Of a stretch of DNA of 64,000 nucleotides, positions 9,774 through 22,394 are shown piece after piece; position 1 is the first letter of the stretch; each line of letters begins with the position of its first letter. Origin of the DNA: an uncultured Chthonomonadaceae bacterium (lineage in GTDB: Bacteria > Armatimonadota > Chthonomonadetes > Chthonomonadales > Chthonomonadaceae); contig CAWFQB010000009.1 in NCBI GenBank assembly GCA_963817895.1, forward strand, positions 94,868 through 158,867, in the 5' to 3' direction. The notes beneath the pieces are model-generated. The model had not been told where the DNA came from. It did not search any database and saw only the letters and a list, made by a program, of their open reading frames with translations. The position numbers were made by a program, and so were the translations under genes.

Positions 9774-10125
9774 TCAACTCCTCAAGCGGCTTTGGCGGCG
9801 CGTTTGCGGGCGCGGGGGCGAGACGGGTTCCGCCGCCAGCACGGGAACCAACTCGGTCGGGCCAACCGGCGTCAGTTCCGACAGGCAGCGATCCACGCAC
9901 AAAATCTGGCGCGTCACCGTAAAGTCGTGTTCCAGCGTGTGCAGGGGCAGGCCATGCAATGCGTCGCGGAACCGCTCATATTCCAGCGAGGCCGTTTGGT
10001 ACAAGCGCAGGGCTTCGGCGCGTTCGCCCATCAATGCCCGCGTCCGCGCAGTCCGCGACCTGTTCGCAAAGATTATCGTAAACATCCCCAAGCGTCAGTT
10101 CCGTTGTGAATTCTTCTTCGTTCAT
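9774..10125 (-). CDS. Hypothetical protein (probable frameshift near 10025)
   Basis: MNEEEFTTELTLGDVYDNLCEQVADCADAGIDG joins ERAEALRLYQTASLEYERFRDAL across ORFs 9976..10287 and 9774..10091. Confidence 0.5.
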
Positions 10126-10485
10126 GGTTGCTGTCCCCATTCCAGACCCTGCTTCCCAACGGAAACAGGGCTGCAAAACCCTTCGCAAACGCCATTTCGC
10201 GCTGCTGCAATCGGCAGGAATTTTACTCACATTTACAGAACTACAAGCCGGAACCAAAAACCGGAAAACAAAAATTTCAGCATACAAAAATCAACGAAAA
10301 TCTTGCAAGTCAGGGTACAATAACGCGGCAAGCGGGTTCCCTATTTGCCCCTGCCCAACCAGTATTCTCTTATTGTATTATCCTAGATGGCCGGTGAAAA
10401 CGCAATTTTTCTCCCGCGTTTTACGTGATAGCAGGGTCGGGCTGGCCTTCCAAAAGGACGCCCTGAACTTCCGGCGGAGTAGATC

Positions 10486-11246
10486 ATGTCCGAGCAGGCA
10501 TTACCAGAAGCGAGTTCCCCATTGGGGCTGGCCGGGTTCCAAACCGAGGGGCGAACGCGCGAACCGCAAGTCGAAGCGCAGGTGCAGCGCCTGCTGCATA
10601 CGCCGCAACACCGCGTTCTGGCGCGAAGCCCGGCAAGCGGATCGCAAATCCTCCGAATGGGTGCAGGAAGAGACGCTCGTTTGTATGCTGCGCATCTGGA
10701 ACCGGAGTCGCGAACCGAGCGGATAAGGAAAATGCGTGGCATATAGCCGACCTGCTTCTGGAACGCAGCGCGCGGTTCGTGCATCAGCATGTCAGCTGCT
10801 GGAAACTGTCGCCCCAACACGTAGACGACTGCAAGCGCGACATTCAGGTGCAGATGCTGCAAGACCTGTTTAATGACAGCCGGGGTTGTGAGTTCTGGGA
10901 AGTGCGCTTCTGGCTGTGTCTGAAACGGCGATTGCTCAACATCGTGCAGAAATACCGGGGCATGGCGCAGGCCGAATTCGCGCCCGCGCCCCTCGAAGAT
11001 GAAGAGGGACACGCGACTGACTATTTTGAGCGCGTGGCCGATGGCGAAACCCTGTCGGCGCACGAGCGCGTGGAGGTGCGCGAAGCCCTGCGCGTCCTGC
11101 CCGAACAGGAACGCAAAGCCTTCGTCCTCTACCACTACGAAGACTGGTCACAGGAACAAATCGCGGAAACCCTACAGGTCACGGATAGAACCGTCCGCAA
11201 CCTGCTGTCACGCGCGCAAAAACGACTGGAAGAATGGCGGACGTAG
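10486..11246 (+). CDS. Atypical sigma-70 (ECF-like) RNA polymerase sigma factor with an N-terminal extension (about two frameshifts)
   Basis: Region 4 is LRVLPEQERKAFVLYHYEDWSQEQIAETLQVTDRTVRNLLSRAQKRL. A region-2-like segment contains DDCKRDIQVQML...FWEVRFWLCLKRRLLN. An RBS (GGAG) precedes ATG 10486. Confidence 0.8.
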
Positions 11247-11451
11247 AGGAAGAGAGAGAAAAGGCGACAAGTTGAAGAGGCGATTTTTACCATCTGTTCT
11301 TTATCTCTTTCTTGGCTGTTCTCCTTTTCGTCCTTGGTGGTGAAAATTTTATGTCACCTTTCCGGTTTCGTTTCACGCGGCATAGTAGCCCTATCAGCAA
11401 GCCGCAATGCGCGGTTTAGAATTTTAATTGAGCAAGACAAACGGGTGATCC

Positions 11452-12107
11452 AATGAACCAGTATCAATACCGCCGACACAGAGCGGCAGCAGAACGAAAA
11501 AGACATAATTTTTGCCGATTGGAGCGAAGACCGGCAGAGCGCCACGCCGCAGACCTTGCGCGACATGGCTGAACCGATATCCGCAGTATGCCGATGAATT
11601 GATTGGCTGGGCGGCGGACGCGCCCACACTGGAATGCGCGCTGGAAAATGCTGACGCCGGATTTAGCGGGCGGAAGCGCATACGCTGGCAATCGGGCGCA
11701 ATGTTCTGGCGGAAATGCGAACGCGCTATTTTGCCGCGCTGGAAACCGCGCCGCAAGCCCGCCATCGAAGATCTGATTCAGGCCGCAAAAGCGCAGGGAT
11801 TGACGCCCAAAACGCTTGCCGCGCAAATCGGCGTGGGCTTGCCGCTTAATCGCCAAATTGCAGCAGCGATTGATTCGCCTGTCCACCATACCCGAAGAAC
11901 TGGTAAACCGGCTGGCGCAGGCGCTGGATACGGGCGCGGAACAGGTACGCGCGTATCTTGGCGCGTCCCACCACGCTGGCGGCGGGAGCGAGCTACAAGT
12001 CCGATGGCGTCCCGCAGGCGGCGCAGGCGGAAGATTTTGACGCGGCGGTTCGCGCCTGCACGGATATGAACGCGGAACAAAAACAGTTCTGGCTGGAACA
12101 AAAGTAG
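11452..12107 (+). CDS. Hypothetical regulator with an N-terminal WLNRYPQYADEL motif and an XRE-like HTH (several frameshifts)
   Basis: Reassembled by frame-walking: ...EKDIIFADWSEDRQSATPQTL..WLNRYPQYADELIGWAA...AAKAQGLTPKTLAAQIGVGLPLIAKLQQRLIRLSTIPEELVNRLAQALD...GASYKSDGVPQAAQAEDFDAAVRACTDMNAEQKQFWLEQK*. Confidence 0.65.
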
Positions 12108-12262
12108 AGCGAGACCAAAGGCAGTTCGGTAACTAAAGAAGTTCTCGCAACTTTAGGAGAAAGGAAGACGGAGGTTGGGGGCTATTCGGGTAAAATATGA
12201 TATACTCTGCGTGTCTGAAACGGTCTCTGCACGTTTGTTTAAATTTGGTTTTCAGGAATGTC

Positions 12263-15200
12263 ATGCCCGATTGGAACGCCCTGCGCCGCCGCGCTTACGA
12301 ACAGCATTTGCAGTTGCGCGTCTTTCTGCCCCAAGACGCGCCCCTTCTGCCGCCCGCCGAAAGCCTGCTGGAAGCGGCGGAAACAGCGACGGATGTAAGC
12401 CGCGTGGCCGTGCCGCCCGGAGATGGCCTGCTGGCGGGCGCTCATGCCGTGCTGGATTGCGACATTCCGGGCATCTGGTACGCGAGTGGGCCGTCCGTCA
12501 GCCGTTCGCGGCAGTTGTTCGCGCAGGCGCACGAGTTTGCGCATTTCTGGCTGCATCCCGAAATCGGACACGACCAGTGCTTTGCCGATGATACGCCCGA
12601 CGCTTTTGCCCCGCCCTCCTTCCGCCTGCCCAACTCCCAACTTGCCGAAGGGTACAGCCACAAAGAGCGCCGCGAATCCGAAGCCAATCTCTTCGCGGCG
12701 GAACTGCTGCTGCCCGGCCCCATTCTGCGCCAACTGTTCCTCGAACACGGCTGGAAAGCCAGCCGCATCGCCGCCCACTCCGGCCTGTCTCTCTCCTGCG
12801 TCCTCACGCAACTGGCAAGCGCGTTGCTGTTAGGGGAAGAAAAGGAGAAGAGGAGACAAGGACAGGGAACAGGGAAAAGCAGCAATTCGACAATCCACAA
12901 TCCACAATCCACAATCAATTCATCCTTCAATCCTTCAATCCCTCATCCTCGACTTGACACAGCCAACGCGCCGCCGCGCATGTCGAACACGGGCCGGTTC
13001 TGGTGGATGCGGGGCCGGGAACGGGCAAAACGCGGACATTGATTGCGCGTATTTTGTTTTTGCTGACGGAGCGGAATGTTGCGCCGGAAAACATTCTCGC
13101 GCTGACGTTTTCCAACAAAGCGGCGGAAGAGATGCACACGCGGCTGCGGCAGGCGGTGGGCGATCTGGCGGACCGGGTCTGGATCGGCACATTCCATGCG
13201 TTCGGCACGGGAACTGCTGCGCAAAGAGGGAACCCGCATTGGCCTGCCTCCCGCGCCCGAACTGCTGGACACGCCGGACGCCATCAAACTGCTTCAGGAC
13301 AATCTGGATCGGCTGCATCTGCATCATCTGGAATACCTCAGTTTTCCCATTCTGCCCTTTCCCGACATTCTGAATTGCATTTCCCGCGCCAAAGACGAAC
13401 TGAAAACGCCGCAGGATTATGCCCTTGCCGCGCAGCAGCAACAGATCGCGGTAGACCCACACGCGAAAAAAGCGGAGTTGGAAAAGCATCTGGAAAACGC
13501 CGCTAAATCGCAGGAGGTGGCGCATGTCTATGCCGTGTATCAGGAGTTGCTGAAGCGGGAGGGCAAACTGGATTTTGGCGACCTGATTATGCGGAGCGTG
13601 GAACTGCTGGATACGTGCCCCGACGTTCGGGAGCGATGGCAGGCGCAGTACCCGCATATTCTGGCGGACGAGTATCAGGACATCAACCGGGCAAGCGCGC
13701 AATTGGTGCAGCGATTGGCGGGAGACGGGAAAGGGATTGTGGGCGGTCGGGGATTTGCGGCAGGCGATCTATCGGTTTCCGGGGCGCGTCGTCCGCGAAC
13801 GTGCGCAAGTTCCACGAGGATTTTCCGGGCGGGCAGCGTATTCAGCTGGAACGCAATTATCGTTCCCGGCCTCGCTTGTCGCCATGTTCGGCGCGTATGC
13901 GAGTGGCATGGCAGGCACAACCGCAACGTTTTCCGACTGGCAGCCGCAGCGTGAATCAGCAGCGATCTAACGGAGAAAATCCCGCTGTACTGGTTGCGGT
14001 TGCCGACAATGAGGACGCGCAGGCGGCGGGATTGGCAGATGCATATTCGGCAGGCGGAAGCAGGCGGCGTTCCGCTGCGCGATCAGGTGATTTTGTGCCA
14101 GACACATCGGCAGGCGGCGGGATTGGCCGAACTGCTCGGCGCGAACGGGATAGAAACGCAACACGCAAGCGGGTTGTTCGAGCGCGAAGAAACCAAAGAC
14201 CTGCTGGCGTGGCTTGCGCTTGCCTGTGAGCCGGAGGGCAGCACACTGGCGCGAGTGGCGCGTTTTGCCGAGTACGATGTGCCGCAATCCGATGTGTTGA
14301 CGTTGCTTGCCAGCGGCGCGCGACGCGGCGTAAGCAGTTTCCCGCCGCGCTGCTAATGGCAAACGAATTAGCGGAAGTGTCGGAACAGGGGCGGCAGGGC
14401 TTTGCGCGGATGTGGCGGCATCTGGAACCGTATCTGTATCATGGCACGGCGTGGACACTGCTGGCGGGCTATCTATTTGAGGCAAGCGATTACCTGCTTC
14501 CCCTCCTGCGCGACGAATCTGTAGCGGGACGGCAAAAACTGCTTGCCGTTCACGAACTGCTGGTCGTTGCGCTGCGACTGGCAAAACGTTTTGAAGTGGA
14601 AGAGAATCAGCAGGCGGCTTTGCTGAAACATCTGCGCTTTCTGCGGACATGCGGGCAGGAAAAAGCCCTGCGCGTATCAGGGGATGACGCGGAACTGGAC
14701 GGCGTTCGCCTGATGACCGTTCACCGAAGCAAGGGACTGGAATTCCCGATTGTGTATCTGCCTAATCTGGTAAAAGGGCAGTTTCCGCCGAAGAAGCAGG
14801 GGCGCATGGTGTCGCCGCCCGCCGCGATGGCTGAACGAGTCGACCGTAGAAGACGGCGAAGAGGAGAACAGCGAAGCGGAGTGCCTGTTCTTTGTCGCCC
14901 TGTCCCGCGCTCGCGACATGCTGGTGTTGTCGCGCCCCCTGACATGGAACGGCAAACCCGCGCAGCCAAGCCCCCTTCTCACGGATTGCGAGGCCGCGCT
15001 ACGCGCCTGTGACGCGCAAAATATGCGTATGGGAAACTAGCCCTCAACCCCCAACCCTTCTCCCAAAAAGCGTGGGAGAAGGGGAGTGCGTCAGTGGACG
15101 GTGAGACGCTGCCTCAAGTGCAGCTGTTGTTACCTTACGCAAGACGCGGAGTCCAATGCGAATGGAGAGCTTAATGCGAACGTGATAAATCACGCGCCTA

Positions 15201-15965
15201 CGAATGAGGTTGCGCATATGTTGCGGAAGCGACTCTGAGGATGTGTCACCTTTGCAAGCGAACCTTTGACGCTTTCCGCTTCGGCGGTGGAGCAGTATCG
15301 CAGGTGTCCGCGCCAGTATTATTATCAGCGGGTGTTGAAGCTGCCGCAGAGCGGGGAGGAGGGGGCGTACCTGACGTTTCACAACAGCCTGCAAGAAACC
15401 GTCGGCTGGCTGCAAGCCGAACGCGCCGAGGGTCGGACGCCAACCGAACAGGACGCGCAGGACAGGCTTCACGACAGTTTGGAACGGAAAACGCGATGCG
15501 CCCAACACGGCCCATGCGCGGGTGCTGAAGGAGAAGGCATTGGGACTGTTGGCAGCCGCGCACGACAGCGTGCCGGGCGTCTCCGAAGCAGGCCGGGGCG
15601 TGGAACTGACGGCGCAACTGGAGCATGGCGCGGTAAAAGTGCGCGTGGATTCGGCGGAACAGGACGCGAACGGCGAATGGCGGCTCACAACCTACAAAGC
15701 GCAGCGGGACAAGGACGACCACACGAACCCGCGTTTGTCGCTCGCCCGCCACGCCGCCCGCCAACAATCCGACCGTCCCGTACAGATCGTCTTAGGATAC
15801 ATGGACAATGGCGAACAGCGCGAAATCGAGGAAAAGCCGCGCTACGAACCCGACCGTATCGCCAAGTACAATGAAGCGCTGAAGGCCATCCGCGAAGAAC
15901 GGTTTGAACCCAGTCCCTCGCAGGAGTGCAATTCCTGCCCCTTCTTCCTAATCTGCCCATTATAA
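12263..15965 (+). CDS. ImmA/IrrE (M78) metallopeptidase - UvrD/SF1A helicase - PD-(D/E)XK-like Fe-S domain fusion (many frameshifts)
   Basis: Peptidase motifs FAQAHEFAH and ESEANLFAAELLLP. Helicase motifs AGPGTGKT, LTFSNKAAEEM, TFHAF, DEYQD, VGDLRQAIYRF, LERNYRS, LMTVHRSKGLEF and LFFVALSRARD. C-terminal LSASAVEQYRRCPRQYYY...CNSCPFFLICP. A single polypeptide is inferred; the last domain (15266..15965) could be a separate gene. Confidence 0.8.
15038..15087. repeat. REP-like palindromic element, copy 1
   Basis: TAGCCCTCAACCCCCAACCCTTCTCCCA-n-TGGGAGAAGGGGAGT. Near-identical to 22395..22446. Confidence 0.85.
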
Positions 15966-22354: not shown

Positions 22355-22394
22355 ATCTTGTTACGTAATTCTAATTTCCTTCGCCTGCTGAAAA

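Follow-up and report, generated by a model that had tools for sequence, protein, structure and literature searches.

A helicase-linked M78 peptidase and an ECF-like sigma factor as a predicted DNA repair switch in Armatimonadota

Bacteria are known to use only a small number of DNA-damage switches: LexA/RecA, IrrE/DdrO and the WYL activators. The window analysed here, a 64,000-nucleotide stretch of DNA from an uncultured Chthonomonadaceae bacterium (Armatimonadota), holds a cassette of three genes on the + strand, which encode an extracytoplasmic function (ECF)-like sigma factor of ~255 aa (10486-11246), a partner protein of ~215 aa (11453-12107) and a fusion of an M78 peptidase, a helicase and an Fe-S-type domain (12263-15965). 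The cassette resembles IrrE/DdrO and CapP/CapH in its predicted working and is a member of neither, because its peptidase is fused, its geometry differs and its output is a sigma factor. Matches to a sigma-type promoter found at this locus exceed their control only where the cassette is present, and they stand ahead of repair genes. The observation made in an earlier reading of the sequence only, which had proposed a self-contained damage or phage response, is confirmed, and its interpretation is partly supported and extended to an M78/XRE-type switch with a predicted genome-wide repair regulon.

In Deinococcus, according to portions of PMC5552922, PMC7907104 and PMC10904395, the M78 peptidase IrrE (PprI) acts on the XRE substrate DdrO, and the radiation/desiccation response (RDR) regulon includes ligT-recA, ssb, gyrA, gyrB, ruvB, recQ and recD. 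The cassette shares the predicted pairing of M78 peptidase with XRE substrate and an overlapping global repair regulon, in which recA, ssb, gyrA/B, ruvB and recQ are matched by motif only and unevenly among families. It differs in its output, a dedicated sigma factor and a directional -35/-10 promoter where the Deinococcus system releases a repressor from its operator, in its peptidase, which continues into a helicase and an Fe-S domain, and in its hosts, which carry LexA and belong to another phylum. IrrE has HTH (helix-turn-helix) and GAF-like domains, and the RDRM (radiation/desiccation response motif) operator is palindromic. Control of the RDRM type does not fit the cassette, whose motif is bipartite, directional and non-palindromic.

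The likeness to CapH/CapP, as far as the main texts of 10.1101/2022.04.27.489752, PMC13373217 and PMC11601596 describe that pair, lies in an XRE domain close to CapH, an aromatic-basic candidate cut site and an occurrence upstream of Bub operons. CapP is a stand-alone protein and its pair diverges from a local operon, whereas the cassette peptidase is fused, co-directional with Bub genes and here associated with a genome-wide set of sites; the word 'helicase' has no match in these three main texts. The nearest prior hint is found in the main text of Lau et al. (10.1101/2022.04.27.489752), where 24 CBASS (cyclic oligonucleotide-based antiphage signalling system) loci have a sigma70-family gene beside capH and capP.

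With pairs of ECF sigma and soluble anti-sigma factors that proteolysis releases (RseA-sigmaE type) the cassette shares the sigma2-sigma4 fold, the sigma-partner gene pair and a self-directed promoter; it differs in having no membrane anchor, a soluble M78-helicase as the protease and a long N-terminal extension. The AddAB and AdnAB helicase-nucleases have a similar UvrD plus Fe-S PD-(D/E)xK architecture, but the nuclease site is degenerate in the fusion and the addA and addB models score far below their cut-offs. The repair regulon of mycobacterial PafBC, too, runs parallel to LexA and has a promoter of its own, but PafBC is a WYL activator that works with the primary sigma factor and has no protease step. 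No group with this gene context appears in the part of the supplement examined for the ECF classification PMC7826278. A literature search, with most subscription papers outside its coverage, turned up no account of either fusion or regulon, and PADLOC-DB 2.0 (2023 library) returned generic helicase matches only (GajB, RTasHel) for the cassette and none for the partner.

Architecture and conservation of the cassette

The fusion opens with an M78 (ImmA/IrrE/CapP-type) zinc peptidase domain (12263-12832; PF06114, E 5e-13, 49.5 bits against a cut-off of 22) whose HExxH lies at 12530-12544. It continues with a superfamily 1A (SF1A) UvrD/PcrA-like helicase (12950-15000; PF00580, PF13361) in which motifs I-VI are intact, Walker A at 13012-13032 and Walker B at 13667-13681, and ends in a PD-(D/E)xK-fold domain with four cysteines and a degenerate catalytic motif (15266-15965; PF12705). 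HEFAH, EANLF, both Walker motifs and the four cysteines are all present in the window. The HExxH residues and the downstream glutamate (the third zinc ligand), GK of Walker A, DE of Walker B, Q of motif III and R of motifs IV and VI are invariant in 59/59 fusions, so that, as judged from sequence, the peptidase and the ATPase look active. The four C-terminal cysteines, which we take to form an AddB/Cas4-type Fe-S staple, are invariant as well (59/59), but the nuclease residues are not: Asp of motif II is present in 43/59 fusions, the Lys position of motif III holds K in just 7/59, and the window reads T-Y-K, with the acidic residue missing. The last domain thus looks like an Fe-S module that does not cut, and is probably no nuclease. 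An active C-terminal nuclease was rejected as a candidate, since its catalytic D...(D/E)xK is not conserved; of the AddAB-type, Cys-containing domain proposed earlier, the cysteines stand and the catalytic residues do not. The fusion does not reach the equivalog cut-offs for pcrA, uvrD and rep, so it is not an ortholog of these helicases. Both inter-domain linkers (12830-12950 and 15030-15260) hold low-complexity repeated DNA of the type caatccacaatccacaatc together with a short GC-rich inverted element, and the repeat at 15030-15260 matches elsewhere in the window near 22387.

The peptidase domain of the fusion was matched in 53/61 genomes of the order, nearly always as a single copy; besides the source genome, 52 have a match, and 42 of these show an open frame of at least 1,000 codons. 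Most of the 45 longer database proteins found have all three domains, and the named ones come from Chthonomonadaceae. The order sigma-partner-fusion is kept in 34/40 loci picked by their fusion; two loci end at a contig edge and in four the fusion is unlinked, three of the latter genomes having sigma and partner together elsewhere. Matches to the partner occur in 47/251 Armatimonadota genomes and are concentrated in four families (13/14, 9/10, 11/11 and 10/14). A FastTree tree of the 59 fusions groups them largely by host family (20/22 rows of f1 in one clade, f14 5/5 and f29 5/5, f-numbers standing for families; exceptions exist), which fits long chromosomal residence. In Armatimonadota the cassette appears to be a resident chromosomal regulator, a new point. 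Outside this phylum, the triad is found in Chloroflexota and Proteobacteria.

The sigma factor matches Sigma70_r4_2 at E 6e-17, and the ECF superfamily model TIGR02937 is passed by 3/3 intact orthologs (53.2, 48.0 and 52.0 bits against 42.9). It carries an N-terminal extension of ~75 aa, and its model, with the sigma2-sigma4 fold of ECF (group 4) factors, resembles sigmaE, AlgU and SigH (Foldseek E 7e-5 to sigmaE).

The model of the partner (mean predicted local distance difference test, pLDDT, of 89) comprises an N-terminal helical domain, an XRE HTH, a conserved linker/coil and a short C-terminal helical tail, and, at E<=0.001, its homologs number 1,721 representatives. The stretch 107-172 superposes on the N-domain of CapH (7t5u) at Z 7.8, a middling value below 8, with a root mean square deviation of 1.6 Å over 61 residues, and the XRE domain aligns with CapH, ImmR and DdrO at Z 6.7-7.8. 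In the coil, a dipeptide has Y/F in 153/158 and then R/K in 144/158 aligned relatives; comparison with CapH and DdrO makes this conserved bond, Tyr-Lys at 11994-11999 in the window, a candidate cleavage site. In the parts of the sources covered, CapH is cut at F82-R83 (Lau et al., 10.1101/2022.04.27.489752) and DdrO at L106-R107 (PMC5552922, PMC7907104, PMC10904395).

Much of what the sequence-only reading had described is therefore borne out. The three co-directional genes are all found on the + strand, though frameshift-split, and they co-occur in other genomes; the first encodes an unusual sigma-70 protein, the second an XRE-like HTH protein of ~215 aa, and the third an HExxH peptidase joined to a helicase with intact Walker motifs, in a single polypeptide in relatives. 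Every Pfam family that it had named is matched, in the order Sigma70_r4_2, Peptidase_M78, UvrD-helicase, UvrD_C and PDDEXK_1, with the domains of the fusion in successive pieces.

Promoter motif and predicted repair regulon

The motif TTTCCG-N19-AGT, bipartite and of near-fixed spacing, occurs in 35/53 sigma loci and 13 times on the reverse strand, there often facing a small divergent gene. In the window, one site (11359-11386, +; position weight matrix score 24.0) lies upstream of the partner and fusion genes, where two congeneric genomes also have it; most other genera carry the site ahead of the sigma gene. In the 18 genomes that have the cassette, the strict pattern was counted 248 times against 81 for a reversed-pattern control; the 12 that lack it gave 29 against 46. 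In the source genome of the window, labelled G000, 94 sites score at least 17, compared with 15-30 in shuffles. Among 244 sites fetched from 17 genomes, 169 lie outside long frames, against 9/29 controls, and a peak of ATG codons 5-9 nucleotides downstream (25/244 sites) fits leaderless starts. No second shared operator or element was seen outside the -35/-10 boxes in 49 sites; this, with the directional and bipartite character of the motif, favours a sigma promoter over an operator, and the sigma factor of the cassette would be the one that reads it. Several cassettes outside Armatimonadota have an identical or nearly identical -35 element directly after the fusion and before Bub genes, with the -10 element changed to a CGAT type.

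Repair, recombination or topoisomerase genes follow 41/244 of the fetched sites (36 without five doubtful ones), as against 0/29 in cassette-free genomes; these assignments are by the author's reading, with first open reading frames (ORFs) outside the family scans named via clusters. The predicted targets are ssb, thpR-recA, ruvAB, recQ, recN, radA, recD2, recJ, gyrA/B, topA, polA, ung/UDG, mutL and PARP, and further ones are nucleases, CRISPR, restriction and transposon genes and the cassette's own genes. A test that started from the genes polA, ssb, recA and ruvB placed a site upstream in 24/72 loci with the cassette and in 0/47 without it. Taken gene by gene, with sites scoring at least 12, the counts with and without the cassette are 3/18 and 0/12 for polA, 9/18 and 0/11 for ssb, 7/18 and 0/12 for recA, and 5/18 and 0/12 for ruvB. 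G009, a genome of the same family without the cassette, has no site at any of these four genes.

In G000, 40 regions from the top 70 sites contain, among unrelated genes, polA, ssb, recJ, the recR operon, uracil-DNA glycosylase, PARP and the recA operon downstream of the site, while sites at gyrA, gyrB, recD2 and ruvB score 12.8-18.0 (background 1.6% at a score of at least 12; queries from other genomes). The 22 sites of another genome, G084, include those ahead of thpR-recA, recD2, recN, radA, ruvAB, recQ, ung, topA and PARP. On sequence grounds, the cassette appears to control core repair genes chromosome-wide and not just a neighbouring defence operon, and no defence operon adjoining it was found in the window or genome. 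The damage link proposed earlier thus gains support from a sigma-type promoter ahead of repair genes, and the self-contained response is not borne out in G000, where the regulon is genome-wide.

Replacement of LexA by the cassette was rejected: lexA is present in G000 and in 17/18 genomes with the cassette (11/12 without), and no site lies upstream of it (0/18). Ahead of lexA lie conserved elements, CAGTAGAC and then GTAC-rich or GTACAC boxes, a candidate LexA box specific to the lineage (loci, given as L-numbers: L081, L548, L555, L552, L545 and L561 in f1; L559, L544, L550, L558 and L546 in f3), and lexA of f29 has a different upstream element, CCGAACATCTGTT.

Other genes under the promoter include one for a protein found in four genomes (L087:2150-2998, G000 C14; L315, L368, L371), which has no Pfam or PDB match and, through an Atlas match to Sak of just 0.87, a weak lead to annealing proteins of the Sak/Rad52 type. 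Bacterial WGR-PARP genes stand behind the promoter in two families, four genomes in all (L089, G000 C6; L309, L449, L493). Transposon genes of the TnpB, IS200, IS1595 and IS3 types lie downstream of it (L292, L324, L329, L417, L265; L091, L095, L503), which suggests damage-induced mobility, and cas3 and cas6 genes do so in four families (L365, L390, L411, L370, L282). A second M78 peptidase follows a site in L112 (G000 C5; weak HTH match) and L382, a possible regulatory cascade. On the other side of the sigma gene in the window, a site of the same type (10240-10267, -; score 24.8, fourth best in the genome) faces a small divergent gene of ~115 aa with one frameshift (9774-10125, -). Homologs of this gene were found at 16/60 Armatimonadota loci searched (window match E 6e-11), and a Pfam scan gave no family.

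Proposed switch and alternative readings

Given the architecture, its conservation, the catalytic residues and the link of the promoter motif to both cassette and repair genes, a helicase-protease-sigma DNA-damage switch with its full mechanism and regulon is the best explanation, one that seems somewhat more probable than the rest together. At rest, the partner would hold the ECF-like sigma factor inactive, probably with its N-terminal helical domain; its XRE domain and linker would present a CapH/DdrO-like cleavage site. The UvrD motor of the fusion would load on single-stranded DNA (ssDNA), gaps or DNA ends, aided by the non-cutting Fe-S nuclease-fold domain, and this loading would turn on the attached M78 peptidase, which would then cut the Y/F-R/K bond of the partner. 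Once released, the sigma factor would transcribe TTTCCG-N19-AGT promoters. In Armatimonadota these promoters would serve a chromosomal recombination, repair and topology regulon together with the switch's own genes, with feedback and alongside LexA; outside this phylum, on mobile islands, the same switch would drive Bub-type operons. Activation of the fusion by ssDNA is suggested by analogy with CapP and PprI, for which it is described in portions of 10.1101/2022.04.27.489752 and of PMC5552922, PMC7907104 and PMC10904395.

A number of points weigh against this switch. The motif pattern was chosen after the upstream sequences had been viewed, 75/244 sites lie inside long frames and ~190/244 precede other or unknown genes. 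The genomes are kin, so that kinship inflates any p-value and the counts overstate independence. The regulon is also uneven: mutL, recQ, recN, radA, ruvA and topA of G000 have no site upstream, three f3 genomes have just 1-4 strict sites, and the three of f29 lack a site at each of ssb, recA, ruvB and polA, the f29 sites preceding mutL, recJ and nucleases. LexA could carry much of the damage response, and the cassette copy of the source genome may itself be dead. As for the partner, its XRE domain suggests DNA binding, and fold searches, which barely tested the N-domain, placed only the XRE part and matched no known anti-sigma fold, an Atlas search giving every match below 0.9.

The role of the partner is where the proposed switch meets its strongest competitor. 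Partner and sigma genes are co-directional, the stop codon of one often overlapping the start codon of the other, and the pair stays together when the fusion moves. The N-terminal helical domain is a conserved extra part that is not in CapH. The close pairing and this extra domain, together with the lack of a shared operator outside the promoter boxes, argue against a plain CapH/DdrO-like repressor acting at the sigma factor's promoters or at the sigma gene, whose cleavage would derepress without any sequestered sigma. Such a repressor is rather unlikely, in spite of an XRE domain that is closest to CapH, ImmR and DdrO, of the 24 CBASS systems in the main text of Lau et al. and of three genomes (L035, L036 and L060) with a second, shorter partner copy that has no N-terminal domain (L036 has an additional sigma-partner pair as well). 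The partner would instead be an anti-sigma factor, with the N-terminal helical domain as the candidate sigma-binding part; in one relative (L123) the partner has a zf-HC2 finger, a mark of anti-sigma factors, at its N-terminus.

Separate from the mechanism is the state of the window copy, in which all three genes are frameshift-split and none is one ORF. Frameshift-aware alignment to intact relatives counts two events in the sigma gene (near 10609 and 10709; 88% identity to an intact ortholog), eight in the partner gene (90%) and 14 in the fusion gene, three of them inside a poorly conserved linker (89% over the corrected alignment to the 1,214-aa relative P0001); the peptidase-helicase join hinges on a missing base near 12960. 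These ~24 indels across 5.2 kb are probably consensus errors of the assembly. A recent pseudogene would account for their number, set against zero frameshifts in a nearby dehydrogenase gene and just about three other tested genes broken, but it is an unlikely explanation: the indels are mostly single-base insertions, the aligned codons have no in-frame stop, the identity of 88-90% is close to that of intact neighbours, pieces of recN, radA, ruvB and polA are likewise split in G000, and that genome has kept its many strong sites. Four sequencing runs with shares of 0.06-0.07 represent relatives, and no RNA run was listed.

Another rival is a helicase that acts as a repair effector and merely travels with the peptidase, with a real sigma regulon and a peptidase switched by free ssDNA or zinc, without motor activity. 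The intact helicase motifs, the place of the fusion itself downstream of a sigma-type site in the window's genus, and the zinc response of IrrE and direct ssDNA response of PprI (portions of PMC5552922, PMC7907104 and PMC10904395) would all suit it; it is nevertheless quite improbable, because the fusion persists in different phyla, its linker being short (35-75 residues between the end of the peptidase and Walker A), an ordinary PcrA-like helicase is also encoded in these genomes, and island cassettes control non-repair operons.

The island cassettes came to light in a search across phyla with the fusion alignment, in which 10 of the 80 matches listed held the peptidase domain and the others were mostly ordinary helicases. 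Among the matches listed, the cassette precedes multi-ubiquitin, E2-like, JAB, ThiF or DUF6527 genes in 6/6 proteobacterial loci, and a Bub-type operon also stands behind it in one Chloroflexi and one Armatimonadota locus. Plasmid records matching at E<=1e-80 number 83, and the one opened has the full cassette with Bub-type genes behind. The Armatimonadota case (L065 and G227:C1:2009588) has, in G227, a Bub-type operon behind the triad; the fusion gene and the sigma-partner pair each occur there a second time, and this genome possibly links the island and chromosomal forms. That the trigger is invading DNA, such as phage or plasmid ends, with a mainly defensive output and repair genes as a secondary matter, is very doubtful, for while these Bub-type operons, the plasmid records and the sites ahead of cas3, cas6, restriction and tnpB genes speak for it, L065 alone among Armatimonadota loci has Bub-type genes, G000 has none, and ssb, recA, ruvB, recQ, gyrA and PARP recur most often as targets.

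The broadest form of the proposed switch is a DNA motor that gates its own protease, destroys an XRE-type anti-sigma factor and so releases a sigma factor for a repair regulon independent of LexA. That regulon would exist in at least four Armatimonadota families, and the switch, being portable, would also be the missing regulator of many Bub/Bil ubiquitin-like operons. The chances that this amounts to an undescribed class of damage response are evenly balanced. If true, the switch would couple helicase sensing to sigma-factor release, and its predicted promoter, regulon and cut site make a direct test possible. It also bears on the open question of Bub operons without an assigned regulator: the part of PMC13373217 covered counts 544 operons, 219 and 59 of them with one, which by the author's sum leaves about half without. 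Bub gave no phage protection in E. coli according to the main text of PMC11601596, and operons that need a private sigma factor and a DNA trigger could be silent if cloned without the cassette.

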